From Dipteris shenzhenensis (taxonomy: Eukaryota): 64,000 bases of DNA. Shown one piece after another: positions 1,912-37,259 of the stretch (position 1 is its first letter; each line of letters starts with the position of its first letter). Both the position numbers and the translations under genes were made by a program. The notes beneath the pieces were generated by a model. That model did no database searches, had not been told where the DNA came from, and saw only the letters and a program-made list of their open reading frames with translations. Location: the NCBI GenBank assembly GCA_047967505.1, contig CM106538.1; one strand, written 5' to 3'.

Positions 1912-1924
1912 CTCCCCCTTGAGC
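1912..1924 (-). promoter_or_regulatory. Polypurine tract of the copia element
   Basis: Minus strand reads gctcaagggggag immediately before the 3' LTR. Confidence 0.8.
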
Positions 1925-1937
1925 TCAATCCCAATTC

Positions 1938-6760: not shown

Positions 6761-6772
6761 GCTCTAATACCA
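6761..6772 (-). promoter_or_regulatory. Primer binding site (tRNA-iMet type)
   Basis: Minus strand tggtattagagc, one mismatch to TGGTATCAGAGC, directly after the 5' LTR. Confidence 0.9.
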
Positions 6773-7124: not shown

Positions 7125-7149
7125 CATTGTACTTCCAATTGTCCAGCCC

Positions 7150-14550: not shown

Positions 14551-16347
14551 CACAACACAAAGCAACTATAGATGCACTTGATAGACGTGCAAAATAGCGG
14601 GCATGTCTATAGGCATTGCTTGAATAGAGAAATTATGGGTGCGTCTAATAGCGCTTCTAATAGCTCATCTATTTGTGTGTGTATTAACACGTCTATTAGT
14701 GTGTCTACATTGAGAAAATACGGGCCCGTCTAACATTGCGTCTATCAGTGCATGTATTTGTGCGTATATTAGTGCATCTATTAGCGCGTCTACACTGAGA
14801 ATTAGACATGTATTTAGATGCTAAACATAGAATACAGAAAGTGAGATTTTGGTGTACATCATTGCTTTCCAAACATTGCCCATGATTACCAAAGCACATA
14901 ATTTTAAGAAAAACATCAATGCTTTTTTGCAAGCCCACATATACAAGAATTAAGTGAGGTGAGGAGAATGAGACAATATGTCAAATAGTTTTGCCAATAT
15001 CAATGATGGGGGCTACGGTTCAATCTCATCCTCAATGAGATCAACCCTTGCCAAACTATCTACTTCAAAATCCAAACAAGTGTTTAGATCTACAAATACA
15101 TTCAACCCATTACTACTTGTGCTACTCATGTGCTCATCGAAATCAGCATCACCAATGGTATGCTCGTCCTCACGAGTAATGGCCTCAATATCTATATCTC
15201 CTATCTCATGATCATCCTCCTCTCTCATATCACAGTCATCATCACCTCCATGGCCACGATCATCCTCCATACGCTCCATATTAGTAAATGTACTATACAT
15301 CACTTTGGAACGTGGCATAATAGGTATGACATGCCACCATCTATTATTATCCACCATTGGTTGATAGACAACCTAATTCAACCACAAATACAATCATATT
15401 ATTTTCCTTGCATCGAAGGTATCAAATATTTAAAAGCGAGTATTTTTATATGTGTGCACAGTACCTGTTCACATTGTTGCGGTAGTACTAGTGTGTCCTT
15501 CCTACTTTGCCAAAACTTTATGGAGTCAATAGTTACAAAGCCACTTGCATGGCATTTGATTGTTGCATTAGGGCCTCTTTCCACCACGTCCTTAAACCAC
15601 TTTACATCCAAAACATACACAGATCGATTAGTCGTAGAAGTAGTGCAAGCTACTCTTTTCTGTACTTAAAGCCACTGGCTTGGCTTCATGCCTCTTGTAT
15701 ATACACTCCTCTTATTTTTTGTACTTGAAGCCATATGATGTGGCTTAGCTTCGTGCTATTTGTACATACAAGCACTTTTTGAGCTTTCAATTTTCTTGTG
15801 CAACATTCTATCAATTAATGCCTTGTGAACTAAATGTTTTGGAGTTGTAATGTTTTATTTGGAATTGTAATTGTTGGCTATAGACATGCTTCCAAGAGTG
15901 CTAATTAAAATGCGGTTGGCTGTAAGAATTGAATTACACAATGTGGAAATGGGATTCTTGTAACTACATAGCATACACAACATACACATCATTCTATAAA
16001 TTTAAAAAATATTATGTAGCACGTCTATCAGTGCATCTATAAATGCATCTATATGTGTGTCTATCTATTCGAGGAGCATCTATTCGTGCGTCTATAAAAG
16101 CATCTATAAGACCGTTTATAAATGTGTCTATACATGCGTTTAACGATGCGTCTGTCTGTTTTTTAAATTTTCTAGCAGAGCATCTATTTACGTGTCTATA
16201 TGCACGTCTATATGCACGTCTGTCTGCAATATAGATGTGCCGTTAGACGCGGGTCTTTAGACACGTAAATAGACATGCTCGTAAGTTTTTTTTTAGGTTC
16301 AATAAATGCGTCTGTGTGCGCGTTTGTAGGTGCTTTGTCTTGTTGTG
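14551..16347. mobile_element. En/Spm (CACTA-superfamily) element with CACAA termini: left end, TnpD C-terminal piece and duplicated right end
   Basis: Left TIR cacaacacaaagca, right TIR tgctttgtcttgttgtg, 3-bp TSD AAA, and dense gc(g/a)tctata/tataga(c/t)gc subterminal repeats in both orientations. Abrupt internal junction at 15620/15621. Confidence 0.85.
15013..15620 (-). pseudogene. CACTA TnpD C-terminal fragment (DUF4216-like) with acidic tail
   Basis: YVLDVKWF...HASGFVTID...DTLVLPQQCEQV, a probable intron, then NRWWHVI..PR and a D/E-rich tail. Confidence 0.75.
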
Positions 16348-17726
16348 AAATCTATCAAAATTTCCCAAAAGTGTTTTAAATACTCCCTTATCTAAATTAA
16401 CTTCTGTTAAATTTAGATATTAAAAACATCCTTCTGTTGAACTCACGTGATAGGGTTACGTATGATGAGTGACCCCCCTGAGAAGTGATGCAAATGACAA
16501 AGACAAGTTTGTGAGTTACTATGTTGGGAAACACATTATGTTGAGAAAGTACATGATTTGAATGTGTGAGTCTCCAATGGGTATAATACTTTGCACAGGC
16601 TTCAATATCACCTACTTTAAGGCCTTTTCAAACAACTATGCCCATCAAATATTGTTCTCCATGGTTAGGGACACATTTTTCCTTCTCTTTCACCCCCCGT
16701 CATGCACAAGTGCCGAAAGACACACATTAAGGTGTCTCATTCAAACTTGAGAGATTGCATATTGAAATGCTTGGGAAACATGATATGTTATGAAAACATG
16801 CAAGATGCTCTATATTGCTATATTCCATGTTGCAATGCTCTTCAAGTGACTATGCCTGTGAAACAAGAGATGCAAAAGTTATGTTGAGTTCAATAAGAGA
16901 TGCAAAAGTTATGATGAGTTCAATTCAGTATGTATCTTTTCTGTGCATTTGAAAATGATTGAACAACGTCCATCTCAATGTCAAGGTAAAAAGGCTAAAA
17001 GCACACAGAGCTCATACAACATAGGAATCATTTATGGTGAAAAAGACTAGCAACCCTCTTTAGAAGCTCTTGTCTACAAAGCACGCTTCCACACACAAAA
17101 TTCACATCAATTTTGAAGGAGACACTCCTAGATTTGCTAATAATTATGAAAATCTACAAACAATCAAATATCTTTGAAAAATCTAAGTCCATAAACAGCT
17201 TCGGCTGCCCCAGTTAAATCGTCATCCCTAGAAACATATCATATGTACTAATGTCATCCAACGAAGGACAACTGGTAGAAGAAATCTTGGCTTTGTCTCA
17301 AACACAAGCAAATAGAGTAGGTATGAAATTAAAGAGTGATCTCACAACCAAATGGTAGAAGAAATCTTGTCTTTGTCTCAAACACAAGCAAATAGAGGAG
17401 GTATGAAATTAAAGAGTCTCACAAACATTCAACATTGCCCTGCTCTTGCACCATCTAGCTCATTGGTTTGCAAAACCAAACAAGAAGAAAAAAGCCATCA
17501 TCCAATACTTCAATCACCCATCTAAGTATTCCAGTGAAGAGCCGTGGCCAAAGAATACAAAGCTATCAAGCCCACATATTTTGACAAAAAGGAGTAAGCG
17601 TTAGAAGGGGAGTGTGCCAAGAAACTTTAGATGCACCATGAGAGAATACGCCACAATATTTTGAATATGCCAAGAGGTCTCCAGCTACAAGGAAGCATAC
17701 TAGATAGTAGGAAAGCAAGATGGGTT

Positions 17727-17883
17727 TGATACCATGTTGAGAGGAAGAGGAAGAGGAGAGAGAGATACAAGAGTTGCTCCCAAGGAAGTGCTTCTATTGG
17801 AGTTCTATTGACAGATCATTATAGGCATATATATAGTGGAGGGCTAAGTTGAGAGTTAGGGTGAGCTATCTATGGCTCTAACA
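17727..17883 (-). mobile_element. Short LTR (17735-17883) with tRNA-Met PBS remnant
   Basis: Minus strand tgttagagcc...ctctcaaca then tggtatca; same family as 858-1036. Confidence 0.7.
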
Positions 17884-19325
17884 GTTGTGGATCCTGGGAG
17901 AATTCATAGTCTCGGATAACCCTTAAATAATAGGGTGACAGGGCATGACATGGATGGCATGTGCAAGAGAAGTAAGTTTAGTGAAACTTCAATGAATGCA
18001 ATAGCGAAAGTTGTCAAATGTTGGGAAAAACCTATGGCTGTGTTTTGCCTCCTTTGAATGTACACATGTCACTTACTGAAGTGCCCCCTAAACGAATGGA
18101 TAAAAAAAGAAAAAGGTGAAATGGCTTGCTAGCAAGTTTCATGCAGTGGATTAAGAATTGGAATCACCTTTCATATGCTTATGCGCCCCATTGCAAGGTA
18201 GTGACTCTAAAATGAACCAATGCAAAATTACAAATAATGTGGGATTTATTAAAGAGCATTGCACATGTATGAACTTAGTTTTTTCTAGTGCATCCATTTA
18301 TGGGCGAACTAAGTTACAAATTTGTGCATTTCTTCAAAAAAAAATCCTTTTTTACCAAATAAGGAAAATTTATTAAGCTTATCCTCAAAGGTATGTTTGT
18401 AATTGCAGCACTGTATTGGAGACCCCATAGACCATAGAAAAGGTTCTCAATTGACTCTCTCCTTCGGTTTGTAGGAAGCTCAAGTCATGCGCTTTCAAAT
18501 AAAAAATTGCTTTCATATATATGTTGAACAATTATTTGATTTTCTAAAACTTTTTAGATATCCTATTCAAATTTGTGAAATTTCATTACGAAATGCATAA
18601 GTTATGAATTGATCAAGTTAGGCATATGCAATATATTCCCTGAACTTCACAAAAATGTTCTATACCCAATCATGCATTGGCCCTTCACTATATATAAGTC
18701 TATGTATCATGTGTGTTCAAAGCCTAATTTAAATGTTCCTTATTTGTTACATTTTTATCAATAAAATGCACCCTTTTTTAATTCAATATGTGAGTAACAA
18801 TTTAAATGGTACCCTTTTGTAGGTGAAAAAATGTGCTAGTTTTAAAAAAAGTCCCTTGTATTGAACCCATGTGTAATGCTTTCATATTTGTGAGTGACCC
18901 CATTGGAGCAACTCCACTTTGCGTAGCACTTCTTGCATTCAGATGGGAATGTAAGGACATGATTCTAGGTGGATGCCTTCTCCAATATAAGGTCCTCTTT
19001 TTGGATGGGTTTTTGAGTTCGTTCGTGGTCTCCTCATCTTTGTAGTTAGGCAACTATCGGCCTAGTTTTTTGGCCTTTTCCTGGGTTTTGGCCATGGGGA
19101 TGGAGAGAAAGAGGGAGAGCATGTGAGACAAAGGGTGAGGTGGGGATTAAGGGCAAGTGGAAGAAGGTGTGGGAGTGGAGAATTCTTAAAACCCAGAAAT
19201 AAAAATGAGTATAGGGCCCAAAACCTTAAATTTAAAAAATGCTAGTTTTCAATTCTAAACTCCAAAACATAAAATCTACTCAATCTTGAACTAAAAACTT
19301 ATAATTAAAATGCGTGCAACCCAAG

Positions 19326-19877
19326 TTTTTCCTTTTGTATTATAATTCATAGCATGTATATACTGACGTTATTGTAGATCGCATAACTAAGAACTTGTTA
19401 TTCAACAATAAAAAGATGGGTGAGCTTTTTACCTATGTTTCTTTGAGAATCCTAGCAAAATTACTCCACCTCTTGCAAGTGGGTGCAATTTTTTCCTTTT
19501 GTATTATAATTTATAGCATGTCTATATTGACATAATTGTAGATCACATAACTAAGAACAATAATTATGTCTATATTGACATAATTGTAGATCACATATTG
19601 TCTATATTGACATAATTGTTATTCAACAATAAAAACATGGGTGAGCTTTTGACCTATGTTTCTTTGAGAATCCTAGCAAAATAACTCCTTCACCTCTTGC
19701 AAGAGGGTGCAATTTTTTCCTTTTGTATTATAATTCATAGCATGTCTATACTAACGTAACTGTAGATCACATAACTAAGAACTTGTTATTCAATAATAAA
19801 AACATGGGTGAGCTTTTTACCTATGTTTCTTTGAGAATCCTAGCAAAATTACTCCTTCACCTCTTGCAAGTGGGTGC
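19326..19877. repeat. Tandem repeat, ~165-bp unit x3, middle unit internally expanded
   Basis: ttttccttttgtattataatt.atagcatgt...gagaatcctagcaaaat...cttgcaag.gggtgc repeated three times. Confidence 0.9.
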
Positions 19878-20523
19878 CAATACCACTTGTCGAGATACTA
19901 GCAATAGATAGAGTTTGTTAGAAAGTAAGCCTAGTGATTGGTGGGAGAAGCAAATGTGCAAATGGATTTGGAAACAATGGGCATCAAAATGCTAGTGTGG
20001 GGAAGGCTTGTATCTTTTTGTGTACTAAGGCCAACACAAGAAGTGCAAGTTCATAGGTCGGTGGGGAGACAGCTGGGTGACCTGGCATTGTTTTCTAGAA
20101 GTCTCATTGTGACCTGGGTGGTCGTCTGTGGTAGATGTGCTGCTATATGTACTATGAATGTGTGAGCGACGATAGAAGCAACTGTTACGCGTGGGTGTCG
20201 ACCTTATGTAGATGGGATATATGGGGTACTGAGCAAATGTGAAATTGGTTGCAGAAAGGGCGTGGAATGCGTCACTCGTGACTATTGAGTGGTGACTATT
20301 GAGTGAGTAGTGAGAAAAACATGGGGTATCTAATAATAAGTGGGTACCATGTGAGGCCATCATATAGGACGCAAGGGTCGATATAACGGACTGGAAGCCT
20401 TTAGGACTCAAAATTGTCATGCATGGCCTCTTTAAATGCGGTACCAACTGAGGCGATCATATAGGACGAAAGGGTCGATATAAGGGACTCGAAGCCTTTA
20501 GGCATTTTTCAAAATCGTCCTGC

Positions 20524-21715
20524 ATGGCCTCTTTCGACGACCTTCTGCTGCTTCTCTCACCTCAGCTTCCTTACCTTCCCGATTTGCCAGATATCGCCCA
20601 TGATCCACACACTTCCTCTCCTTCCACGCTGTCTTCCCCTCCCCCTCACTTCTTCGAAGCTTCCTCGCCCTCAGACTTCGATCGCCTCCTTCCACAAACT
20701 ACTGCCGGATCCGTCCCCCAGCTTGGGCCCAGTTCTCTGCATCCTACAACTCGGCAGAATTTAGAAATCTGTGGGTTGCCCGGGCTCGGACAACATAGAA
20801 TTCCTGGTGGTTCCATTGAACTAGAAGGAAGAGGAATCCTGAAACGAAGAGATCCTTCTCATAGGGAGCGTGTAGTCAAGGAAAACTTGCGACGCAAAAC
20901 AATGGCCAAATTGTTCTCGAGGTTGGAGCTACTGCTGCCGCCACAAGACCTGTACACGGTATGAAATTCTTCTATTCTTTCGGTACTTCTAAACCAGCTA
21001 ATTCTGTCAGATAGGGTGCACAGGAGTATTAGGCACGACAACGCGCTTGAATGTTTTGATCCCAATCGGAGGTTAAGGCAGACTATAAACTTTTTGTTTT
21101 ATGGGATGGAAAAAGTTTGACAGGTGCAGCCTCCTAGACGCCACAATGACGTACATACGCTCCTTACAGAAATCGGCTGCAGAACTTTCCGAGACAATTA
21201 ATGCCATGCAATCTTCGAGCACACGCAAGCAAGTTGTCACGATATCTGACATCGGCAGCTCCCCGACCACAACTAGCACTGATGTGGAGCAGCAAACGCC
21301 ACTAGTTGTAGTAAAGTCTGTTTTGACAGACGTTTGCATAAGTGCTGTATGCAACAACAGAGATCCCTTGCTATTTTCATGCTTGCTATCGGTGGTGCAA
21401 ACACAAGAACTCCAAGTCTTGAACGCAACACGCTCACAGAAAGAGGAAACGGTCTTATACACCATCCATGCGAAGGTAAAACTATTCGTTGCTATCATCC
21501 AGCACGATGCGCTTGTTTGTTCTGATCAAAACCAGATTAGGAAAGGTGCCCGTTGGAGGAGCTCCAGCTTATAGCATTTTACAATATTTCGACCTAGATG
21601 TGCTGTGATACCATCATCCATGGTTGTGGGTTGGGTGCAGATCCCAGAGACGGTTAAGCTGCGCGAGCAACTCCTCAAGGATCAGCTTTACGATTTGCTA
21701 GGTGCAAAGCCCTAG
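20524..21715 (+). CDS. bHLH transcription factor with C-terminal ACT-like domain, copy 1; exons 20524-20958, 21116-21475, 21641-21715; 289 aa
   Basis: Basic/helix 1 RVVKENLRRKTMAKLFSRLELLLP, helix 2 DRCSLLDATMTYIRSLQ and ACT-like LLSVVQTQELQVLNATRSQKEETVLYTIHAK. Two phase-0 GT-AG introns give an open frame ending LGAKP*. Confidence 0.88.
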
Positions 21716-22019
21716 GGGTTTGGGAGCTGGGTTTGGAGAGAAAGATTGCAGTGCAGTCTGCACGGCTTCCTGGCCAAAGAGGCTAAAAAGTGTCTACAGC
21801 CTATCCATTGTCTTTCGTCAACAGCAACAGCCTCTGTTACGCCGTGCTTCAGAGGGCAATCTGAACGAACGGCTTGAATATGGAGCTAGTTTAATACAAT
21901 GCTTTTCGCAACTCGGGACCACCCGTGAAAATTTTTTCGCAACCAATCAAATTAACGACCCTGAGTACATTTCCTGGTTTTACACTAAATTACTCAACAT
22001 CTTAACCTATAATTTGTAA

Positions 22020-22071
22020 CGAGTAGCCTGACCCGTCTACGACGGGTTGGAGACCCGCTCTGCTGGGTCTC
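22020..22071 (-). terminator. Helitron 3' terminal signal: two hairpins plus CTCG
   Basis: Plus strand: acccgtc-tac-gacgggt (22031-22047), gagaccc-gctctgct-gggtctc (22050-22071), cgag at 22020-22023. Confidence 0.8.
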
Positions 22072-22174
22072 AAGGTGGGATCTTTAATTTCAAAAGAGAA
22101 ATTCTGAAGTTCCAACACTGGAACCGCTTGGCTTGGCTCACTTAGTGTAATTTTGTCCAACAGCTTTCCTAAAA

Positions 22175-22730
22175 CCCCCTCTCTGCTTTCATACATAAAA
22201 TTTTGCAAGATTAAGTGCATAAAATTCATGAATTTGTTTGAATTAAACATGTTTGTATGCATATCCCCTCTCTGCTTTCATACATGGAATTTTGCAAGAT
22301 TACGTGCGTAATGCATTGTATGCCAAATGTAAGGCTAGATTGCAACACAATCAATTTTGGTTTATGGGATACATTAGTTTCAGTGTAAATAAATAAAATT
22401 CATGAATTTATTTGAATTAAACACGTTTGTATGCATATCCTCTCTCTGCTTTCATACATGGAACTTTGCAAGATTACGTGTGTAATGCATTGTATGCCAA
22501 TGTAGTGCTAGATTGCAACACAATGAATGTTGGTTTATGGGATACATTAGTTTAAGTATAAATAAATAAAATTCATGAATTTGTTTGTATTAAACATGTT
22601 TGTATGCATATCCCCTCTTTGCTTTCATATATGGAATTTTGCAAGATTATGTGCGTAATGCATTGTATGCCAATGTAGTGCTAGATTGTAACGCAATCAA
22701 TCTTGGTCTATAGAATTCATGATTTTTTTT
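22175..22730. repeat. Tandem array inside the Helitron, ~174-bp unit (about 2.6 copies) plus one ~90-bp deleted unit
   Basis: cc.ctct.tgctttcata.at..aa.tttgcaagatta.gtg recurs near 22176, 22265, 22439 and 22612. Confidence 0.9.
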
Positions 22731-22931
22731 GAAATAAACGTGTTTGAGTATAAATAAATAGAATTTATGAATTTGTTTGAGTATAAACGTATATGTGCAT
22801 GCTTCAATAAACACAACAAAATAAGATTTACTTAAAATTAGCATACCTAACAAAATATACGCTCTATAAAAGAGTACTACAAAATCTTACAAATTCATAT
22901 ATCTACATACAGAGTGTCTATATCAGCTCCC

Positions 22932-23646
22932 CTAAGAAAATAGACTACGTCTATGTCCCACCCCACGCACCACCACACGTGCGCGGCGTCGACCTACGCA
23001 AGGCAAAAAGATCATTTAAGAATTATAATCATTAAATCAAAGAAAATTTAGAATTGTGTCTTAATAATACTCCACATTAATTAGAATACTTACGCTGGCG
23101 CACAGGAGTGTGTATGTGGTACATAAATGCATATACAAAGTCTCCGTTCGCCCCTCGATAAAATACATCTGTTCCCATCGGCTCCAGGTACCCAATGAAG
23201 CGCACATAGATGGTCTGGGGACTATTATTCCCAGCAAGACGCTGAGAACTCACGGCAAAATATCCAAGATTGAGACGTTCCACCCCATCATACGCTGGAC
23301 CGAGGAGATTCATTGCAAAACTTGAGTCGGGAACCGCCCTAAAGGAAAACAATATCATGTTTATTCACTTATATATGTAACCTAAGTAGCTTTCACCTAT
23401 ATGAAAAAAATTTAAAAAATATATATATATATATATATAGGTATCTACCCAATAAAGCTCTCCAATTCCAAGATGTCAACCAATAGCTGGGCGCGCACCC
23501 CAGCTCTCCAACCATCGGGATCTGTATATTCCTAAAGGTAAATGACTATACTATTAAATAAGTCAACTTAGCAACTGACTACTACACAATTATGTACCTG
23601 CTACCTGTACAGTTGTCTCGGTGGTGAATGTAAATGACGCTGCCAT
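22932..23646 (-). CDS. Helitron-borne 4-exon orphan gene, 143 aa; exons 23646-23605, 23531-23449, 23338-23094, 22993-22932
   Basis: Three AT-rich GT-AG introns (73, 110, 100 nt) with compatible phases 0, 2, 1 join four GC-richer exons into one open frame: MAASFTFTTETTVQEYTDPDGWRAGVRAQLLVDILELESFIGAVPDSSFAMNLLGPAYDGVERLNLGYFAVSSQRLAGNNSPQTIYVRFIGYLEPMGTDVFYRGANGDFVYAFMYHIHTPVRQRRRRARVVVRGVGHRRSLFS*. Confidence 0.75.
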
Positions 23647-24063
23647 CCTATCATATCATATTACAATAACAATACATATCATATTACAGTAACAATAGAT
23701 GTGTCAACGTAAATATAGAGAAGAAATTAAAAGGCTTCACCAAGCCACAAATTAAAAAGAAAATTAGTTATAGTACATTTGATAATCCATAATTTGAAGA
23801 AAAAATAACAATGTGTGAACCCATAAAACTCACAAAAATCATACATTGTCAAAATTCTGGAGACGACATTGTTTGAATGGAATATGGAATGAGCTCATGA
23901 AAATTATACAAAAATAGTCATCACCAATTTTTAATCCACACTTCAAAGGCTTACAATTGATAGACCTTTGATCGCCTAAAAGAACACAACGATACAAAAA
24001 AGACTGTGAAAATTTGTCACCCACCAAAGTCTGAAGAGGCTTTCAAAGAGCATTGGCATACTG

Positions 24064-27000
24064 CTAGGTTCTTCTTGATGCCAATTGTAAAACCTCTTTG
24101 TATACAACATTTGTGGTACAACTCATTTCAGCATCCTCATCACTAACCCAATCCACACTCTCTGGAAGGAATACTTTGACTGCATTTGATGATCGGACAC
24201 GCGAGAAAGCCACGTATAATTGCCCGTGACTAAACACCGGTGTCGCCAAGTATAAGCCTAGGATAGACATTGTTTGGCCCTGTGCCTTGTTTATCGTCAT
24301 GCCAAATGCTAGCCGAACAGGAAATTGCCTTCTTCTCATATTGAATGGAAGTTTCAAGTTACTGGGAATGAAAGTTACTCTTGGAATGAACATCCTATCT
24401 CCAGCATTGGTACCAGTGATAATCTCAACTTCCAATACCTTCGTGTGGAACTCTTTGCATATCAGCCGAGTCCCATTGCATAATCCCTGTCGAGGATTTA
24501 GATTGCGCAACAAAATGAGGGGAGCATTTTGTTTCAAAACCAGCCGATGAGGTGGGTATCCACCACCAAGATCGAGCGTGTTAAGATACTCTACTGCATA
24601 CAAAAAAGAATCTCCACATGAGCTCTCTACTGAGTCTGCACTTAGATACTCCTTTTCCTCGCCGGGCATTGCCTTTAGTGCAGTAGCATTGACTGCATCA
24701 ACTTCAAGGTTTCGAGGTGCGAGAATAGCGCGGTCTCGAAAATACGATGCATAATCCACAACCCTTGCAAGTCCTGTATACACCCACTCAATCAGACCTT
24801 CCATAGAGTTTGTCCTTAAAAGCATCTTTGATGGGATTGCAACAGTGTCTTCTCTTATATGCCTGCTAGTTCCATTTCCAATATCTAACACCCATTGTAT
24901 GAATTCCTGCTCTATTGAATTATCACCTTCCTGAATAACCCGCATATTCTGTACCAGCTTCAATACCTTGATGCATCTCCAAATCCTTGAGTGGCACAAT
25001 GTAGAATTGACAATATCTTCTCGTCTTGCCTTGGGAATAACTGGCAAGACCTGCCTAAAATCCCCCCCTAACAACACCACCTTTCCACCAAACAGTTGGT
25101 CATTTGACATGATATCTTGCAGCGTCCTATCCAGTGCCTCAAATGCGAATCGATGAGTCATAGGTGCCTCATCCCATATTATCAACTTTGCTATCTTCAG
25201 AACATCTGCAAGATGACTGTTAACCTTTATATTGCAACTGCTGGTGGCATCCAAATCCAGTGGTATCTTGAACCGCGAGTGTGCTGTGCGTCCATTACTT
25301 AGTAACAACGCTGCAATCCCAGAAGAAGCGCATGCTAAAGCGACATGCCCCTCCCCACGCAACCTAGAAAGCAAACAATTGTATAGGAAAGTCTTTCCAG
25401 ATCCTCCTGGACCATCAAGAAAAAATATCGCACCAACATTTGCATAGACTGCTGTCAGAATCTGATCGAAGGCAGTCCGCTGGCAATGATTTAAGGTACT
25501 TTCCATCTGTTGACCAAGTCGTGCCTCACTCTCAAAATCAAACATTCTTTCTTCTTGCAATAGAGCATTTGTAGCTGCCAATACACATGATCTATCCAAG
25601 GTAGGCAATCCATCAAACTCTACCAACCTTCTCCCATGTTGTTGGAGAATATGCTCCAAGTGCCATAGAGCCTCCTTCCGTGCCAATCCACGACGGTCAA
25701 CCATACTTGATTCGAACGCATGGAAGAAATCATCCGATAGATCGTCTGAGAATCTTTCCCACAAAATTCCTGGAGATGTTGGCTCACAAAAAATCAAAAT
25801 TGCAACAAAAAGGTGCCTCAACTGTGTGCTATTTTGATGTAAAACGGCCTCTTGCATGCAGATAAACCATTCCTCATCACTTTCCAATAACCCTCTAGCT
25901 ATACATGCTGCCTTGAAAGTAGGGTAAACTTGCCCATCAAAAGTGCGCAAGTCATCAAAACACTTACAACCCTTGCAAACGTTAAGTAGCATACGCATGA
26001 AATATAATTCACCAGCAGATGGAGAAATGTTATACATCCGACCAATGCTATTGCCCTGCCTTCTTCTAGACCACTTTTTATTGGATTTGTTCCAAACCAT
26101 CTCGCATGGAAAGTCACTGTAAAGCAAATTATCTGCATCATGTTGCAATCGGTTGTAAGTGAACCATTCCGTGAGGCTGGTCTTTCTGTTCTGTTCCCTA
26201 TCGACCACATTGTGCAAATCATCATCATCTCTGAATATCACATTATTCAACATCGGAAGATGGACTTGCAACCTTTGTACATCTGGCTTTTCATCATGCA
26301 TATCATACTCATAAATGCGCCAGCATGCTTCTGATGCTGATACATAACGTGAATCTAGGTAATAGTTTATCTCATCAATTCCACAATCAACTGGGTTGTG
26401 TAGTTGTCCTTGTCCTTCCACACGATTTATCTGCATCCTGACGGTTGCTCTGTCATGTCCCTTATACACGTATTTATATAAATACTTGACTGCAGTAATT
26501 GTGGAACAAATTTCAACGTTGATATGTGCCTTGTACTTCATAGAGAGGAAAGGATTGAATGGCACAATCCAACGATTATCCACTATACCCTCTTTCACCC
26601 GTATCTTTCTACCATCATCTCGACGCATGTAGATAGGGTAACCATCGTTACCCACCACAGTAGACTGAGAGAAGGGACGTGGATAGTGACGACTACATTT
26701 GCCATCAAACATGCAAGGAGCAGAGACATTAAGTACACCACATGGGCCATGAACATTGCATTGTGCAATAATCTCATGCAACTCAGGGAAAAGGGTTTTA
26801 TCTGGAACTTCTGCACATACCAATTGATCATAGTGACCAACCTGAGTAGGTTTGAATGCACCTTCCAAAATCAATAGTATGTGTGAGTGCGGAAGACCTC
26901 TCTTTTGAAACTCAATCACACATACGTACCCAGCAACTTTTCCAAACAAATCATGCTTTATAATCGACTGCATCAGATCCTTGTGTTTTTGATAAAATAC

Positions 27001-27333
27001 ACGGGTTGTCAAATCCGGGCGATCTTGTGCTCTTTGACCTGGCAATAATCCTTCAGATATTTCTGACCATTTTGGGTTGCAGGTGAAGGTAATAAACAAA
27101 TCTGGTTTACCCTTTTTTCTCACAATTGCCATTGCATCCTGGTATAACTGGCACATATACCGCGGTCCTCCTGTAAAAGAGGATGGCAACACAACTCTAC
27201 GTCCGACAGCATTGCCCAATACATTATGGACCGCATCAGTTGCGTTTAGCATGTCCATCAATCCTTGATAAACTTCTGCACGTAAAGAAGATTGATTGTT
27301 ACGTATCCATACTCCCATTCTTCCACTAGCCAT
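24064..27333 (-). CDS. Helitron RepHel (HUH Rep + Pif1-family helicase), 1089 aa, native N-terminus missing
   Basis: Rep motifs PDLFITFTCNPKW, EFQKRGLPHSH, KYLYKYVYKG; helicase motifs GPGGSGKT, IWDEAPM, GGDFRQVLPV, RRQFPVRLAFGMTINKAQGQT, HGQLYVAFSRV. No internal stop. The ATG lies in adjacent CACTA-derived sequence. Confidence 0.93.
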   Translation of the reverse strand: MASGRMGVWIRNNQSSLRAEVYQGLMDMLNATDAVHNVLGNAVGRRVVLPSSFTGGPRYMCQLYQDAMAIVRKKGKPDLFITFTCNPKWSEISEGLLPGQRAQDRPDLTTRVFYQKHKDLMQSIIKHDLFGKVAGYVCVIEFQKRGLPHSHILLILEGAFKPTQVGHYDQLVCAEVPDKTLFPELHEIIAQCNVHGPCGVLNVSAPCMFDGKCSRHYPRPFSQSTVVGNDGYPIYMRRDDGRKIRVKEGIVDNRWIVPFNPFLSMKYKAHINVEICSTITAVKYLYKYVYKGHDRATVRMQINRVEGQGQLHNPVDCGIDEINYYLDSRYVSASEACWRIYEYDMHDEKPDVQRLQVHLPMLNNVIFRDDDDLHNVVDREQNRKTSLTEWFTYNRLQHDADNLLYSDFPCEMVWNKSNKKWSRRRQGNSIGRMYNISPSAGELYFMRMLLNVCKGCKCFDDLRTFDGQVYPTFKAACIARGLLESDEEWFICMQEAVLHQNSTQLRHLFVAILIFCEPTSPGILWERFSDDLSDDFFHAFESSMVDRRGLARKEALWHLEHILQQHGRRLVEFDGLPTLDRSCVLAATNALLQEERMFDFESEARLGQQMESTLNHCQRTAFDQILTAVYANVGAIFFLDGPGGSGKTFLYNCLLSRLRGEGHVALACASSGIAALLLSNGRTAHSRFKIPLDLDATSSCNIKVNSHLADVLKIAKLIIWDEAPMTHRFAFEALDRTLQDIMSNDQLFGGKVVLLGGDFRQVLPVIPKARREDIVNSTLCHSRIWRCIKVLKLVQNMRVIQEGDNSIEQEFIQWVLDIGNGTSRHIREDTVAIPSKMLLRTNSMEGLIEWVYTGLARVVDYASYFRDRAILAPRNLEVDAVNATALKAMPGEEKEYLSADSVESSCGDSFLYAVEYLNTLDLGGGYPPHRLVLKQNAPLILLRNLNPRQGLCNGTRLICKEFHTKVLEVEIITGTNAGDRMFIPRVTFIPSNLKLPFNMRRRQFPVRLAFGMTINKAQGQTMSILGLYLATPVFSHGQLYVAFSRVRSSNAVKVFLPESVDWVSDEDAEMSCTTNVVYKEVLQLASRRT

Positions 27334-28567
27334 ACACTGTAAGAGGTGCTTTTGAGACCAAATGGGTTCACACCGTCCATACCCAATCCAAGTCTCAAGC
27401 TCCTAGGTTCTTCCTTGAAGCTTGGCCATGTGTCTTCAATATGCTTCCATGCAGGAGAGTCTACAGGAGTTCTCCACTTGCCATCGGTTGATCGATGGGA
27501 GGAATGCCATGACATGGGCTCTACAATGGATTTGCACTTGAACATATGTTGGATGCGAGGGATTATGGGAAAATGTCGCAGAACCTTATGAGGCAGATCC
27601 AAAGTTTTGAGATCTACTCTATATCTTGCCTCTCCATAAGTAGGGCACTCTCTTGCATCCTTATGTAGTCCACGAAACAAAACGCAATTGTTGATGCATG
27701 CATGGATGCGCTTGTAATCTAATCCTCCAAGAGAGGTCACATGTTGCCATATCTCTTGAGGTCGGTAATTTATTCTCCCTTGGAAGCATTTTACACAATA
27801 GCCCACACATGAAGACCATAAATGAGGAAAAGCATTCGAGTAATTGACCCACTAGCATAATTCACCATGTTTGCAAAATATACTTTAAAGCTTACTTGAG
27901 TAATGCATTCAAACTTGCATTGCTCCATCCATAGATGGTTTGCAAGTTTAGTAACTCAAGGGAGGCACGTGGAACAAAGAATGTGCACCCCTCAAACAGT
28001 GGAGTCGATGTTGCCATAAAAAGATCATCCTGCTCCATGCTATCATCCCTCCCTTTGGATTGATGGACATATAAATCCGGCACCATATCATCAAACACCT
28101 CCTCCTCCATGGCTTCATGAGGTAATGGCAGAGGGCTACTATCACCATCACTCCATGCATCTGTAACGGTCCCTCCTGAAGATCCCACCTCATATTGCCG
28201 ATGCCCACCTCATATTGCCGATGCTTCGCCTCCTCATGGTGAGCATAGGGCAACATATGCCGGTGTGGCACTACATCATGTATCAAATTAAAATGGGATC
28301 ATAACTAAAACATATGAACACCCATAGGTATCTCAATCAACCTTAACTCTTTAACACTTACCATGTTTATAGTCGCATCCCATTCTCCATACTTTGAGAT
28401 GTGATTGAGTATAATCCTACGCACACGATACATGTTTCCTCAACATCGATCACACATACATTTGATTTTTTGCTCCAACCACATTTCGCGATGGTGGATA
28501 TAGAGGGATTCATCCTCACTGGAGCTACTTGTTGAAGATGAAGCCATCCTACAAACAAACAACCCAA
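27330..28567 (-). pseudogene. CACTA TnpD N-terminal part (Transposase_21-like), decayed
   Basis: YKRIHACINNCVLFRG, KVLRHFPIIPRIQHMF, DSPAWKHI, LRLGLGMDGVNPF; upstream CxC.RC zinc motif in a shifted frame. Confidence 0.88.
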
Positions 28568-28949
28568 AAAAATTTGCTTTCCTTCAAATATTTAATTTTA
28601 AAGCACTATGGTGTGTCTAAAGGCGCACCTAAAACCACGTCTATCTATTTTTTGGTGTGCATATATAGGTGCGCCTAAAACCATGTCTGCTCAGTGTATT
28701 TAGATGCGCAATTACATGCATATTTAGACGCGTGTATAGATGTGCCATTAGACGTGCTTATAGATGCGGTTTTCAAATCTACTTTTAGCATGCTTGCTTT
28801 GCTTTTCTTCACATAAGCTTCACGCAGCTTGCTTGCTTTGCTATTAACAGATCCACAGTCCGACACTTAAGAGGAAGGCAACCACACTTACTTCCACAAG
28901 CTTACACTTAAGAGGAAGGCACCCACACTTACTTCTAGGCTTACAGGAG

Positions 28950-30775
28950 AAGAGGGTGAACAAGGAAGAGAAGCAACTTTGAAGAAGGACAAGAAGCTTC
29001 CATACCTCTATCCAAGGTAAGTCTCTTTATGGTTGATCTTCTTTGGAAGTTGCTCTCTTTGGATTCATCCTTTGTCGTATCCAAGAAACGAATGAGTTAC
29101 GCTTTTGTGTTGGGTGCATGTCCTTTTCCACTTTTTAGAATAGTCCATCTGTCGGAGCGCATCTATAGACGCGTCTTATAGCACGTCTAAAACCGCATCT
29201 ATAAGTGCATCTATAGACATGTCTAGTCTATTTTCAGACACAGATAGCCGTGTCTATAGATGCGCTATTATACGCAAAAATAGACACGCTTCTTAAACAC
29301 GTCTATAGATGCACTCTGATAGTTTTAGACCCTTCCCTTCCCTTCCCTTCCCTTCTCATCCCTTCCCTTCCCTTCTCTTCTCTTCCCTTCCCTTTCCTTT
29401 CCTTTCCTTTCTCTTTCCTCTTCCCTTTCCCTTTCCACTTCCACTTACAAGAAAAGGATTTGCCTCTCTTTTCTTCTCTTTTTCCTATATTTGCCTCTCT
29501 TTTATCCCTCTCTTTTCATGGTAATTTTTCTCTCTTTTTCTCTTCTCAGCTCATCAGTAATCTTCTTTTTTTCTTTTTTCCAGTTCATCATGTGGCTAGG
29601 AAGCTCTTCAGGCTCACCTAATCTCTGGGAGACCATTTTTGGGGAGTTATATAACCTTTTAGGGCACCCTCCCAGTCCAAGGGAGTTATACGGCTACATG
29701 ATGGGTACTCTAAACACCCCCTAGGAGTCAGCACTACAGACTCCAAACCACCCCAACCCCACACCAGCTGAGATTACCCCAGCGGAGTAAGCATGGCCCA
29801 GCTGGCTACATAGCCGAGCCCCTTTCCTAAGGCTGTCTTATGCCCCTTCCCCCATGACGTCTTATGCCCCTTCCCCCATGCTGTCAGGAGGTCCTTTTGT
29901 CTTGCAGAGCCGTCGGCGTACTCCTGTGCACTCGAGTTTGCACTCGAGACTTGGTTCTCCAGCTACGAGTGTCCATGTAGTCCTGTGCAATCTGCAGCTA
30001 TGAGGTTGGCTGATGAGACCCTCGCTGCTGTTTGCTTTAGGTATCCTAACCCCCCCAATCTTTAGTTCACAGATAAATGGGCCAAGTCGAGGCCAAGTCA
30101 AACTTGATTGTTACAATACTTGGCAATAAAAGATCTTCTCTTAAGAGGCAGGCACTAGCGGAGCTTGCTAGGCTTGAGGGAGGTCAACCACTAGGGGCCC
30201 TGCCCCACACCGCTCACAAGCGTGAGTGGAAGAAAGCAATGAAGTCAATGAGGGAGGAACCCAGTCTACAACATGGGAGGCATGAAGGATCCAAATGGAG
30301 CAATATGGAAGCATGCATTTTGGAGCAGGGGGTGTTGAATCATGGGAGGCCTAATTTGTAAGTATCAATCTCAAATTATATTGTTTATGTAGTTTATTAG
30401 GAGGTTGTTTCTTTGTACTAACCCATCCGTAAATTGTGTCGTCTTGCAGCTTGATATCGTGGGCAGATACCCTACTCCTGTCGAGAGAGCCTACCACCGC
30501 CACCATCACAGAGGAGATACATGGAAGCACTTCTATCATGACAGGTTGATTATTGAGGAGCAGTATATCCGAGCTACTGGAGCGCCCCCTGAGGTATTTG
30601 AAAGTAATTAAATAATGTCAATATTATAAGTAAAGATTTAATTTTTCATACATTGATATATGTTGTCCCTTGTTTACAGGCCCCTGCACAAGAAGACGAG
30701 GAAGGAGGTGGAGAAGGGAGTGCAGAAGAAAGCATAGAAGGGAGCATGGAAGGGAGTGAGGACATGGAGAACTTA
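28950..30775 (+). pseudogene. Spliced TnpA-like second gene of the CACAA element, oriented opposite to TnpD
   Basis: Exon-like blocks with GT-AG borders: MWLGSSS...LGHPPSPRELY, MEQYG..HFGAGGVESWEA.F|LDIVGRYPTPVE and an acidic last exon. Blocks recur at 47330-47760, 48720-49340 and 52170-53400. TnpA identity is inferred from loose motif similarity only. Confidence 0.5.
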
Positions 30776-32880
30776 GATCGATTAGTCGTAGAAGTAGTGC
30801 AAGCTACTCTTTTCTGTACTTAAAGCCACTGGCTTGGCTTCATGCCTCTTGTATATACACTCCTCTTATTTTTTGTACTTGAAGCCATATGATGTGGCTT
30901 AGCTTCGTGCTATATGTACATACAAGCACTTTTTGAGCTTTCAATTTTCTTGTGCAACATTCTATCAATTAATGCCTTGTGAACTAAATGTTTTGGAGTT
31001 GTAATGTTTTATTTGGAATTGTAATTGTTGGCTATAGACGTGCTTCCAAGAGTGCTAATTAAAATGCGGTTGGCTGTAAGAATTGAATTACACAATGTGG
31101 AAATGGGATTCCTGTAACTACATAGCATACACAACATACACATCATTCTATAAATTTAAAAAATATTATGTAGCACGTCTATCAGTGCATCTATAAATGC
31201 ATCTATATGTGTGTCTATCTATTCGAGGAGCATCTATTCGTGCGTCTATAAAAGCATCTATAAGACCGTTTATAAATGTGTCTATACATGCGTTTAACGA
31301 TGCGTCTGTCTGTTTTTTAAATTTTCTAGCAGAGCATCTATTTACGTGTCTATATGCACGTCTATATGCACGTCTGTCTGCAATATAGATGTGCCGTTAG
31401 ACGCGGGTCTTTAGACACGTAAATAGACATGCTCGTAAGTTTTTTTTTAGGTTCAATAAATGCGTCTGTGTGCGCGTTTGTAGGTGCTTTGTCTTGTTGT
31501 GAAATCTATCAAAATTTCCCAAAAGTGTTTTAAATACTCCCTTATCTAAATTAACTTCTGTTAAATTTAGATATTAAAAACATCCTTCTGTTGAACTCAC
31601 GTGATAGGGTTACGTATGATGAGTGACCCCCCTGAGAAGTGATGCAAATGACAAAGACAAGTTTGTGAGTTACTATGTTGGGAAACACATTATGTTGAGA
31701 AAGTACATGATTTGAATGTGTGAGTCTCCAATGGGTATAATACTTTGCACAGGCTTCAATATCACCTACTTTAAGGCCTTTTCAAACAACTATGCCCATC
31801 AAATATTGTTCTCCATGGTTAGGGACACATTTTTCCTTCTCTTTCACCCCCCGTCATGCACAAGTGCCGAAAGACACACATTAAGGTGTCTCATTCAAAC
31901 TTGAGAGATTGCATATTGAAATGCTTGGGAAACATGATATGTTATGAAAACATGCAAGATGCTCTATATTGCTATATTCCATGTTGCAATGCTCTTCAAG
32001 TGACTATGCCTGTGAAACAAGAGATGCAAAAGTTATGTTGAGTTCAATAAGAGATGCAAAAGTTATGATGAGTTCAATTCAGTATGTATCTTTTCTGTGC
32101 ATTTGAAAATGATTGAACAACGTCCATCTCAATGTCAAGGTAAAAAGGCTAAAAGCACACAGAGCTCATACAACATAGGAATCATTTATGGTGAAAAAGA
32201 CTAGCAACCCTCTTTAGAAGCTCTTGTCTACAAAGCACGCTTCCACACACAAAATTCACATCAATTTTGAAGGAGACACTCCTAGATTTGCTAATAATTA
32301 TGAAAATCTACAAACAATCAAATATCTTTGAAAAATCTAAGTCCATAAACAGCTTCGGCTGCCCAAGTTAAATCGTCATCCCTAGAAACATATCATATGT
32401 ACTAATGTCATCCAACGAAGGACAACTGGTAGAAGAAATCTTGGCTTTGTCTCAAACACAAGCAAATAGAGTAGGTATGAAATTAAAGAGTGATCTCACA
32501 ACCAAATGGTAGAAGAAATCTTGTCTTTGTCTCAAACACAAGCAAATAGAGGAGGTATGAAATTAAAGAGTCTCACAAACATTCAACATTGCCTTGCTCT
32601 TGCACCATCTAGCTCATTGGTTTGCAAAACCAAACAAGAAGAAAAAAGCCATCATCCAATACTTCAATCACCCATCTAAGTATTCCAGTGAAGAGCCGTG
32701 GCCAAAGAATACAAAGCTATCAAGCCCACATATTTTGACAAAAAGGAGTAAGCGTTAGAAGGGGAGTGTGCCAAGAAACTTTAGATGCACCATGAGAGAA
32801 TACGCCACAATATTTTGAATATGCCAAGAGGTCTCCAGCTACAAGGAAGCATACTAGATAGTAGGAAAGCAAGATGGGTT

Positions 32881-33037
32881 TGATACCATGTTGAGAGGAA
32901 GAGGAAGAGGAGAGAGAGATACAAGAGTTGCTCCCAAGGAAGTGCTTCTATTGGAGTTCTATTGACAGATCATTATAGGCATATATATAGTGGAGGGCTA
33001 AGTTGAGAGTTAGGGTGAGCTATCTATGGCTCTAACA
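32881..33037 (-). mobile_element. Short LTR with PBS remnant (duplicate of 17727-17883)
   Basis: Same sequence within duplication copy 2. Confidence 0.7.
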
Positions 33038-34479
33038 GTTGTGGATCCTGGGAGAATTCATAGTCTCGGATAACCCTTAAATAATAGGGTGACAGGGCAT
33101 GACATGGATGGCATGTGCAAGAGAAGTAAGTTTAGTGAAACTTCAATGAATGCAATAGCGAAAGTTGTCAAATGTTGGGAAAAACCTATGGCTGTGTTTT
33201 GCCTCCTTTGAATGTACACATGTCACTTACTGAAGTGCCCCCTAAACGAATGGATAAAAAAAGAAAAAGGTGAAATGGCTTGCTAGCAAGTTTCATGCAG
33301 TGGATTAAGAATTGGAATCACCTTTCATATGCTTATGCGCCCCATTGCAAGGTAGTGACTCTAAAATGAACCAATGCAAAATTACAAATAATGTGGGATT
33401 TATTAAAGAGCATTGCACATGTATGAACTTAGTTTTTTCTAGTGCATCCATTTATGGGCGAACTAAGTTACAAATTTGTGCATTTCTTCAAAAAAAAATC
33501 CTTTTTTACCAAATAAGGAAAATTTATTAAGCTTATCCTCAAAGGTATGTTTGTAATTGCAGCACTGTATTGGAGACCCCATAGACCATAGAAAAGGTTC
33601 TCAATTGACTCTCTCCTTCGGTTTGTAGGAAGCTCAAGTCATGCGCTTTCAAATAAAAAATTGCTTTCATATATATGTTGAACAATTATTTGATTTTCTA
33701 AAACTTTTTAGATATCCTATTCAAATTTGTGAAATTTCATTACGAAATGCATAAGTTATGAATTGATCAAGTTAGGCATATGCAATATATTCCCTGAACT
33801 TCACAAAAATGTTCTATACCCAATCATGCATTGGCCCTTCACTATATATAAGTCTATGTATCATGTGTGTTCAAAGCCTAATTTAAATGTTCCTTATTTG
33901 TTACATTTTTATCAATAAAATGCACCCTTTTTTAATTCAATATGTGAGTAACAATTTAAATGGTACCCTTTTGTAGGTGAAAAAATGTGCTAGTTTTAAA
34001 AAAAGTCCCTTGTATTGAACCCATGTGTAATGCTTTCATATTTGTGAGTGACCCCATTGGAGCAACTCCACTTTGCGTAGCACTTCTTGCATTCAGATGG
34101 GAATGTAAGGACATGATTCTAGGTGGGTGCCTTCTCCAATATAAGGTCCTCTTTTTGGATGGGTTTTTGAGTTCGTTCGTGGTCTCCTCATCTTTGTAGT
34201 TAGGCAACTATCGGCCTAGTTTTTTGGCCTTTTCCTGGGTTTTGGCCATGGGGATGGAGAGAAAGAGGGAGAGCATGTGAGACAAAGGGTGAGGTGGGGA
34301 TTAAGGGCAAGTGGAAGAAGGTGTGGGAGTGGAGAATTCTTAAAACCCAGAAATAAAAATGAGTATAGGGCCCAAAACCTTAAATTTAAAAAATGCTAGT
34401 TTTCAATTCTAAACTCCAAAACATAAAATCTACTCAATCTTGAACTAAAAACTTATAATTAAAATGCGTGCAACCCAAT

Positions 34480-35031
34480 TTTTTCCTTTTGTATTATAAT
34501 TCATAGCATGTATATACTGACGTTATTGTAGATCGCATAACTAAGAACTTGTTATTCAACAATAAAAAGATGGGTGAGCTTTTTACCTATGTTTCTTTGA
34601 GAATCCTAGCAAAATTACTCCACCTCTTGCAAGTGGGTGCAATTTTTTCCTTTTGTATTATAATTTATAGCATGTCTATATTGACATAATTGTAGATCAC
34701 ATAACTAAGAACAATAATTATGTCTATATTGACATAATTGTAGATCACATATTGTCTATATTGACATAATTGTTATTCAACAATAAAAACATGGGTGAGC
34801 TTTTGACCTATGTTTCTTTGAGAATCCTAGCAAAATAACTCCTTCACCTCTTGCAAGAGGGTGCAATTTTTTCCTTTTGTATTATAATTCATAGCATGTC
34901 TATACTAACGTAACTGTAGATCACATAACTAAGAACTTGTTATTCAATAATAAAAACATGGGTGAGCTTTTTACCTATGTTTCTTTGAGAATCCTAGCAA
35001 AATTACTCCTTCACCTCTTGCAAGTGGGTGC
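34480..35031. repeat. ~165-bp tandem repeat x3 (duplicate of 19326-19877)
   Basis: Same array in copy 2. Confidence 0.9.
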
Positions 35032-35677
35032 CAATACCACTTGTCGAGATACTAGCAATAGATAGAGTTTGTTAGAAAGTAAGCCTAGTGATTGGTGGGA
35101 GAAGCAAATGTGCCATTGGATTTGGAAACAATGGGCATCAAAATGCTAGTGTGGGGAAGGCTTGTATCTTTTTGTGTACTAAGGCCAACACAAGAAGTGC
35201 AAGTTCATAGGTCGGTGGGGAGACAGCTGGGTGACCTGGCATTGTTTTCTAGAAGTCTCATTGTGACCTGGGTGGTCGTCTGTGGTAGATGTGCTGCTAT
35301 ATGTACTATGAATGTGTGAGCGACGATAGAAGCAACTGTTACGCGTGGGTGTCGACCTTATGTAGATGGGATATATGGGGTACTGAGCAAATGTGAAATT
35401 GGTTGCAGAAAGGGCGTGGAATGCGTCACTCGTGACTATTGAGTGGTGACTATTGAGTGAGTAGTGAGAAAAACATGGGGTATCTAATAATAAGTGGGTA
35501 CCATGTGAGGCCATCATATAGGACGCAAGGGTCGATATAACGGACTGGAAGCCTTTAGGACTCAAAATTGTCATGCATGGCCTCTTTAAATGCGGTACCA
35601 ACTGAGGCGATCATATAGGACGAAAGGGTCGATATAAGGGACTCGAAGCCTTTAGGCATTTTTCAAAATCGTCCTGC

Positions 35678-36869
35678 ATGGCCTCTTTCGACGACCTTCT
35701 GCTGCTTCTCTCACCTCAGCTTCCTTACCTTCCCGATTTGCCAGATATCGCCCATGATCCACACACTTCCTCTCCTTCCACGCTGTCTTCCCCTCCCCCT
35801 CACTTCTTCGAAGCTTCCTCGCCCTCAGACTTCGATCGCCTCCTTCCACAAACTACTGCCGGATCCGTCCCCCAGCTTGGGCCCAGTTCTCTGCATCCTA
35901 CAAATCGGCAGAATTTAGAAATCTGTGGGTTGCCCGGGCTCGGACAACATAGAATTCCCGGTGGTTCCATTGAACTAGAAGGAAGAGGAATCCTGAAACG
36001 AAGAGATCCTTCTCATAGGGAGCGTGTAGTCAAGGAAAGCTTGCGACGCAAAACAATGGCCAAATTGTTCTCGAGGTTGGAGCTACTGCTGCCGCCACAA
36101 GACCTGTACAAGGTATGAAATTCTTCTATTCTTTCGGTACTTGTAAACCAGCTAATTCTGTCAGGTAGGGTGCACAGGAGTATTAGGCACGACAACGCGC
36201 TTGAATGTTTTGATCCCAATCGGAGGTTCAGGCAGACTATAAACTTTTTGTTTTATGGGATGGGAAAAGTTTGACAGGTGCAGCCTCCTAGACGCCACAA
36301 TGACGTACATACGCTCCTTACAGAAATCGGCTGCAGAACTTTCCGAGACAACTAATGCCATGCAATCTTCGAGCACACGCAAGCAAGTTGTCACGATATC
36401 TGACATCGGCAGCTCCCCGACCACAACTAGCACTGATGTGGAGCAGCAAATGCCACTAGTTGTAGTAAAGTCTGTTTTGACAGACGTTTGCATAAGTGCT
36501 GTATGCAACAACAGAGATCCCTTGCTATTTTCATGCTTGCTATCGGTGGTGCAAACACAAGAACTCCAAGTCTTGAACGCAACACGCTCACAGAAAGAGG
36601 AAACGGTCTTATACACCATCCATGCGAAGGTAAAACTATTCGTTGCTATCATCCAGCACGATGCGCTTGTTTGTTCTGATCAAAACCAGATTAGGAAAGG
36701 TGCCCGTTGGAGGAGCTCCAGCTTATAGCATTTTACAATATTTCGACCTAGATGTGCTGTGATACCATCATCCATGGTTGTGGGTTGGGTGCAGATCCCA
36801 GAGACGGTTAAGCTGCGCGAGCAACTCCTCAAGGATCAGCTTTACGATTTGCTAGGTCCAAAGCCCTAG
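35678..36869 (+). CDS. bHLH + ACT-like transcription factor, copy 2; exons 35678-36112, 36270-36629, 36795-36869; 289 aa
   Basis: Same structure as copy 1; the junction reads DLYK|FDRCSLL, matching the usual K-x-D loop/helix-2 pattern. Confidence 0.9.
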
Positions 36870-37259
36870 GGGTTTGGGAGCTGGGTTTGGAGAGAAAGAT
36901 TGCAGTGCAGTCTGCACGGCTTCCTGGCCAAAGAGGCTAAAAAGTGTCTACAGCCTATCCATTGTCTTTCGTCAACAGCAACAGCCTCTGTTACGCCGTG
37001 CTTCAGAGGGCAATCTGAACAAACGGCTTGAATATGGAGCTAGTTTAATACAATGCTTTTCGCAACTCGGGACCACCCGTGAAATTTTTTCCCAACCAAT
37101 CAAATTAACGACCCTGAGTACATTTCCTGGTTTTACACTAAATTACTCAACATCTTAACCTATAATTTGTAAAGACAGGAGAAATCTGAGCCAGTTTTTC
37201 TCAATTTTAACAGTGGCGCAAAATACACAAAAAGGCTGGTACTGCTCGAATATTAATGC

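Follow-up and report, generated by a model that had tools for sequence, protein, structure and literature searches.

An intron-containing orphan gene, possibly a passenger, in a composite Helitron of Dipteris shenzhenensis

The reading which we consider best supported is that a real intron-containing gene, belonging to a very rare and lineage-restricted family, is carried as a passenger in the cargo zone of a composite Helitron. We give this reading, taken as a whole, a probability of about one half. The gene is found in a stretch of 64,000 nucleotides from Dipteris shenzhenensis (assembly GCA_047967505.1, contig CM106538.1), called the window in the following. A preliminary description, made from the sequence, had already proposed such a gene and had regarded it as a dedicated accessory factor of an autonomous Helitron. 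The gene itself and its placement in a Helitron have withstood the analysis presented here; the accessory function has gained no support, and the carrier is probably not autonomous.

On the minus strand, from position 23646 down to 22932, an ATG and four coding blocks can be joined into a predicted frame of 432 nt, which is 143 codons and a TAG stop (Table 1). The introns begin with GT and end with AG in 3 out of 3 cases, the acceptor is always TAG/G located behind a T-rich run, and the third donor (C/GTAAGT) is strong. Exon 2 is bounded by in-frame stops exactly at both splice borders. Reading through the end of exon 3 leads to a stop after 4 codons and exon 4 lies in another frame; exon 4 can therefore be reached by splicing only. 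The ordinary long ORF of the region is exon 3 alone (23077-23364, 95 aa from stop to stop). This agrees in every detail with what had been proposed before, namely four exons with canonical splice sites coding for an intact protein of 143 aa, of which the ORF track displays exon 3 alone. It had also been stated that an AG directly precedes the ATG and that the gene follows RepHel in the same orientation at a distance of ~420 bp. The AG is present immediately ahead of the ATG. The RepHel ORF is co-oriented, and its stop lies 417 nt upstream of the ATG; a TATA-like TATATTT is located ~70 nt upstream of the ATG. The gene may be expressed. Exons 1 and 2 presumably belong to it: they are predicted from splice signals and composition, with a mild GC step between exon 1 and intron 1 (0.48 vs 0.32), and no homologue of either was found in the two relatives described below, in the protein collections searched.

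Table 1. Positions of the gene, of its exons and introns, and of the parts of the carrier element (window coordinates).
Feature	Position	Strand	Remarks
Whole composite unit	22023..37175	-	15,153 bp; TC start at 37175; carries the gene
Putative Helitron 3' end	22023..22071	-	GC-rich hairpins 22071-22050 and 22047-22031, then CAGGCTAC
Tandem array, 173-bp unit	22176..22800		Between the gene and the 3' end of the element
Exon 4	22932..22993	-	62 nt including TAG stop; Arg-rich tail; GC 0.58
Intron 3	22994..23093	-	100 nt; GC 0.24
Exon 3	23094..23338	-	245 nt, 81 full codons; aromatic core, predicted beta-rich; donor C/GTAAGT
Intron 2	23339..23448	-	110 nt; GC 0.20; contains a (TA)n run
Exon 2	23449..23531	-	83 nt; acidic stretch; GC 0.51, peak 0.73
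Intron 1	23532..23604	-	73 nt; GC 0.32
Exon 1	23605..23646	-	42 nt; ATG 23646-23644; phase 0 donor CAG/GTAGCA; GC 0.48
RepHel ORF	24064..27402	-	1112 codons stop to stop; homology from about codon 32, near 27309
CACTA transposase piece (Transposase_21 / tnp2)	27321..27485	-	Adjoins the truncated RepHel, in another frame

How easily a spliced frame of this size can be put together was determined by dynamic programming, in which every ATG in the window was allowed up to three GT-AG introns of 60-150 nt. When no limit was set on exon length a frame of at least 432 nt was reached by 37.5% of the 1559 plus-strand and 48.7% of the 1791 minus-strand ATGs; when each exon had to measure 40 nt or more, 21.0% and 28.8% still did so, respectively. 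Since 21-29% of the ATGs in the window extend as far, the intact spliced frame alone is not significant. The base composition is a different matter. The exons have a GC content of 48-58% and the introns of 20-32%, the steps coincide with the splice sites, and the exon/intron contrast is 0.265. When the layout was shifted to 8812 other sites in the window this value was never reached (maximum 0.142, standard deviation 0.039). With respect to codon usage the model frame ranks first of six; its score is negative in absolute terms and is equalled by 7.2% of 2000 random chunks.

The exon 3 protein was compared in an exhaustive HMMER search with 1,835,955,588 representative proteins. Three matches were obtained at E ≤ 0.001, and P0003 alone looks like a true relative. 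It is an unnamed ORF product of 79 aa from an 865-bp metagenome contig, and it aligns to exon 3 with 24 identities in 63 residues (38%), 63% positives and no gaps. The other two matches, P0001 (4051 aa) and P0002 (1502 aa), consist of many near-identical repeats which match residues 59-85 of the query only, in 6-7 stretches, and they were judged to be repeat-driven. A second search, with a profile of exon 3 and P0003, left 2 of 24 candidates at E ≤ 0.1 and added P0004 (90 aa, also without a name, from a 1080-bp metagenome contig), which shares 14 of 29 residues with the end of exon 3 (48% identity). Between P0003 and P0004 the identity amounts to 87% over 30 residues, and their likeness ends 5 residues beyond the end of exon 3, which is the site of the donor in the window.

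Where the window has intron 3, P0004 has a spacer of ~35 codons of the AT-rich type (K, Y, L, N, I, F). The spacer is followed by an Arg-rich end in which 10 of 19 residues are identical to exon 4 on a single ungapped diagonal. This tail score was equalled in 5 of 5000 composition-preserving shuffles, and in 4 of 5000 when it was the P0004 tail that was shuffled; BLASTP run with filters and composition adjustment returned no alignment between exon 4 and P0004. The peptides resembling exon 3 and exon 4 share one frame in P0004 and differ in frame in the window. That both are conserved despite the changed frame of the spacer is what a spliced gene predicts, and as exon 4 is out of frame with the read-through of exon 3 the tail is conserved in the spliced frame only.

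The support which goes beyond chance is thus the GC contrast together with the conservation at the protein level of exon 3 and, more weakly, of exon 4. An alternative is that the model does not represent a gene but an ORF accompanied by fortuitous GT and AG pairs. Such an explanation would be in line with the ease with which similar models are assembled in the window (from 21-29% up to 37.5-48.7% of the ATGs) and with the failure to obtain a Pfam match or a usable fold (see below). We hold it to be very improbable: it has to face a GC contrast reached by 0 of 8812 placements, the existence of the homologues P0003 and P0004, and a tail match found in just 5 of 5000 shuffles. On the same three counts we agree with the preliminary description that this is a real intron-containing gene and not a random ORF.

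As far as the sequences tell, the family has three known members, the window gene and the two unnamed ORFs on short metagenome contigs, and appears to be very rare. P0004 begins in the middle of exon 3 and P0003 has an Asn at the position of the donor GT of the window, so that both of these copies may be broken or damaged. Word-index searches of the protein collections gave 0 candidates at near length and 29 candidates among longer proteins, none of which scored. Pattern scans for further relatives matched 143 and 115 times in metagenome contigs, 28 times in genome contigs and 41 times in viral contigs, and 0 of these matches were confirmed. Taken together the word-index, HMMER and profile searches revealed no annotated homologue and no parent host gene in the protein collections searched, the 81-aa query being blind to relatives below ~30% identity.

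The predicted spliced product of 143 aa has a mass of 16.1 kDa and a pI of 9.15. It contains 13.3% aromatic residues, 13 Gly and 15 Arg, and has 0 Lys and 0 Cys. The first 42 residues, the N-terminal third, are acidic, and the last 19 residues include 7 Arg and end in RRSLFS; the aromatic and Gly-rich core and the Arg-rich tail noted earlier are accordingly borne out by the counts. The only Trp of the protein sits in a GW pair in exon 2. From the base composition a product with no Lys is expected with a probability of ~0.03; this deserves notice but is not strong evidence. By eye, the exon-coded parts of the relatives are poor in Lys too (1 in P0003, 0 in P0004). The tail of P0004 carries an RGRGRG run. 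Tails of the Arg or RG type commonly serve in nuclear targeting or in the binding of nucleic acids, and the Arg/RG tail, the sole functional lead, would suggest a nuclear or nucleic-acid-binding activity.

With exon 3 and both relatives as queries Pfam gave no RPA or OB-fold family even at E ≤ 10; the lone match at this level was YdiH, with an E value of 0.28 and in 1 of the 3 members. A profile search of the PDB gave 0 matches at E ≤ 10. The protein therefore keeps the orphan status assigned to it before, with no RPA, PDB or annotated homologue, and the match to a host gene or to an RPA domain which the preliminary description had named as evidence to the contrary was looked for in the protein collections, Pfam and the PDB and was not found. 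AlphaFold2, which it had proposed as a check, produced a model of exon 3 with the two relatives, consisting of six short strands, and with a mean pLDDT of 49.2 and a pTM of 0.37 the model is too poor for a fold search and gives no usable fold. In the Atlas the closest clusters consist of fragments of Peptidase_M1_N (score 0.93, with 158 features in common and a recognition of 1988); these values lie below the reliability marks of the tool, and the lead was rejected.

The carrier was delimited by comparing the window with itself. Positions 15621-22022 and 30775-37175 are 99.6% alike over 6402 bp, with a period of 15,154 bp. A repeat which is found also at 48605-49753 and 47649-46907 crosses the 30774/30775 join without interruption. 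The unit must therefore run from 37175 to 22023, and it is followed head-to-tail by a second copy which is cut off after 6402 bp. The stretch 15621-37175 thus holds 1.42 units, and on the minus strand the junction between them reads hairpin-CAGGCTAC/TCGTTAC. It looks like a rolling-circle read-through or a tandem Helitron, with CTAC as a non-canonical 3' end.

Helitrons have a 5' end starting with TC and a 3' end with a hairpin a few bases before CTRR, and they insert between A and T with no target-site duplication. In the window both copies start with TC, two hairpins are found 8 nt before the end, and no duplication is seen in the flanks. The putative 3' end folds as DNA at -15.7 kcal/mol (z -3.59), which 0 of 200 shuffles match; its sequence is unique in the window and directly adjoins the TC with which the next copy begins. 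The agreement with Helitron ends is only partial: the element terminates in CTAC and not CTRR, TC is preceded by G (outer end) or by C (junction) and not by A, and the bases which flank the element are not A and T. A 55-bp piece of a DNA contig (22020-22074, 5 other letters, 91%) covers the 3' hairpins, and the match stops at most 3 bases from the proposed end of the element, which may be taken as a weak hint that the end at 22023 is a real repeat boundary. Other contig pieces, 98-99% alike, match 23452-23564 (1 other letter, covering exon 2) and 23619-23771 (3 other letters, covering exon 1 and upstream DNA); none of these pieces joins one exon to the next.

The RepHel ORF codes for both a Rep (HUH) domain and a PIF1-type helicase, the combination that defines a RepHel (Pfam: Helitron_like_N 2.3e-49, PIF1 4.9e-78, Pif1_2B 7.5e-14). 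Its residues 32-1106 align to residues 456-1496 of Helraiser (7lcc_A) with an E value of 2.3e-254. HSH, GxGKT and YxxKY-type motifs, as we take them to be, are visible in it. Only the equivalent of Helraiser 456-1496 is present; the first ~455 residues of Helraiser have no counterpart in the ORF, and a search for the N-terminus in the 6.4-kb repeat found two minus-strand ORFs with no Helraiser match. Instead the ORF adjoins a piece of a CACTA transposase: residues 123-177 of the ORF 27258-27851 correspond to positions 1-55 of the 213 in the Transposase_21 profile (E 1.6e-16). The region 27309-27485 has the appearance of a chimeric breakpoint inside two transposase genes, RepHel and CACTA, and the DNA from 27360 upward recurs at 50711-53376 with ~80% identity. 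Being truncated at the N-terminus and chimeric, this copy is probably non-autonomous, which speaks against the earlier idea of an autonomous carrier.

The gene lies within the Helitron-derived part of the unit, which extends from RepHel to the 3' hairpins, and the order on the minus strand is gene, 173-bp array, hairpins. In this respect the Helitron-borne nature proposed earlier was supported. TRF finds the array at 22219-22711 (period 173, 2.8 copies, 91% matches) and self-BLAST extends it to 22176-22800. It is this array that makes up the repeat system of the preliminary description. Tandem arrays have already been described in plant Helitrons, Mothra among them (PMC4683698).

Several other features of the window should be mentioned. 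The possibility that the 6.4-kb direct repeats belong to an LTR retrotransposon was rejected, as they have no TG..CA ends and no flanking duplication, and as no RT or integrase domain is found among the tested ORFs between them. A Ty1/copia LTR retrotransposon is found elsewhere, at 1560-7125 (minus strand), with Gag, pre-integrase and RVT_2 pieces in separate ORFs and with 353-bp LTRs that are 94% alike. The 6.4-kb repeat contains two GC-rich (48%) ORFs on the plus strand at 35606-36728, with a copy at 20452-21574. They resemble a basic helix-loop-helix domain in two halves, with an intron between the halves and a C-terminal region behind them; no Pfam or PDB match was obtained for them. Possibly the element carries here, in antisense orientation, the gene of a host transcription factor. 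At 46649-49994 inverted copies of a ~1-kb repeat (46649-47649 vs 49994-49016, 83%) flank a dense tandem array (47897-48553) with a strong excess of G and A and a GC skew of 0.56. The same ~1-kb repeat family spans the 30774/30775 join of the composite element. Rfam and tRNA scans of the window found nothing.

We now turn to the question of what the gene is doing in the element. As the introns have been kept, the gene was most likely acquired, or came into being, as DNA. Our preferred reading supposes further that it would be copied passively at each rolling-circle replication of the element. If it is expressed, transcription would start from its own upstream region (the TATATTT) or result from read-through from RepHel, and the product would be a small nuclear nucleic-acid-binding protein acting via its Arg tail. 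We infer that the gene is a passenger, and the presence of further foreign DNA in the element makes this more likely. Among the points which count against our reading is the age of the element: its two copies are 99.6% alike, hence young, and the intactness of the frame is for this reason no sign of selection. Another is that the collections searched contained no parent host gene, which one would normally expect to find for a captured gene.

The same youth of the element could be used to argue that the exons are a decaying relic, left from a captured gene or gene fragment, neither expressed nor selected, with a frame that is still open only because the copy is recent. Spliced open frames of this length do occur by chance at 21-29% of the ATGs, in its codon usage the model frame is not exceptional (7.2% of 2000 random chunks), and the relatives may themselves be broken, considering the mid-exon start of P0004 and the lack of a donor codon in P0003. 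A precedent is the captured 96-aa ORF of the rice Mothra Helitrons, which was judged to be functionless in the part of the account concerned with it (PMC4683698). We find this reading unlikely. Against it stand the ungapped conservation of the protein (38% identity and 63% positives over 63 residues) and the conservation of the tail across a change of intron frame, and the sharp GC step between exons and introns is what one expects where a sequence has long been coding.

A dedicated accessory protein of the Helitron, with an Arg tail and kept by selection on the element, was the reading favored in the preliminary description. It could act by binding ssDNA or RNA, in nuclear import of the transposition complex, or in anti-silencing. 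The gene is indeed co-oriented with RepHel, 417 nt downstream of it and inside the Helitron-derived segment, its coding sequence is 38-48% identical in the relatives, and no host parent gene turned up in the collections searched. The relatives, which come in two versions, are ORFs that lack annotation and stem from contigs of just 865 and 1080 bp; this would fit a multicopy repeat masked from annotation. The lack of Lys (P ~0.03), the one GW pair and the RG-rich tail of P0004 are suggestive, if weakly so. Yet an accessory function of this kind has not gained support from the analysis and we regard it as improbable. Plant RepHel proteins are plentiful in the same collections while the gene family has 1 ORF among the 1.84 billion representatives, which means that it is no general companion of RepHel; moreover the adjoining RepHel is truncated and the element holds other foreign pieces. 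A more far-reaching version, which we consider doubtful, makes the gene the founder of a new family of Helitron accessory proteins, Lys-free and beta-rich, of ~16 kDa and with an Arg/RG tail, which a lineage of plant Helitrons would keep for its own propagation. Such a protein would coat or escort the single-stranded transposition intermediate, or it would blunt RNA-directed silencing.

RPA70-like proteins are several hundred amino acids long. The window product, in comparison, has 143 aa, it has 0 Cys with which to form a zinc ribbon, and it gives neither an RPA or OB-fold match in Pfam (E ≤ 10) nor a match in the PDB. What it has in common with the RPA70-like genes of plant Helitrons is to be an extra intron-containing gene beside RepHel (PMC4683698 and PMC9033089, in the sections which describe these genes). 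According to the same sections plant Helitrons hold additional ORFs and captured fragments. The host genes and gene fragments captured by Helitrons, in maize and by Mothra in rice among others, show a likeness as well (PMC2267711 and PMC4683698): they too occupy a cargo zone between RepHel and the 3' hairpin, keep their introns and are accompanied by other foreign DNA. The window gene differs from them in being a complete frame from ATG to stop and no fragment, and in having no parent gene in the collections searched. Junctions between a 3' end and the TC of a following copy, as well as tandem Helitrons, are also on record; maize and bat elements show CTAG/TC junctions in the parts of PMC2267711 and PMC5876387 concerned with them, to which the 3' end adjoining the next TC in the window corresponds. 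The window differs in having CTAC and not CTRR as the 3' tetranucleotide and in a second copy that ends after 6402 bp.

In this locus we have a clean case of an orphan gene, real and without annotation, that repeat masking has kept from view. Its lesson is that a spliced open frame alone is no evidence, and that a compositional step between exons and introns together with conservation across copies is. The carrier, with its head-to-tail 1.4-mer and its chimeric join of CACTA and RepHel, lends itself well to the study of how rolling-circle read-through and the capture of sequences take place. If the Lys-free accessory family were true, its protein could not be ubiquitylated on lysine residues. 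Judging from excerpts of two sources (PMC9033089, PMC4683698) in a literature search that was not exhaustive, no protein beyond RepHel and the RPA-like genes is known to be kept by plant Helitrons; a conserved extra gene, if true, would bear on how Helitrons move and how they escape silencing.
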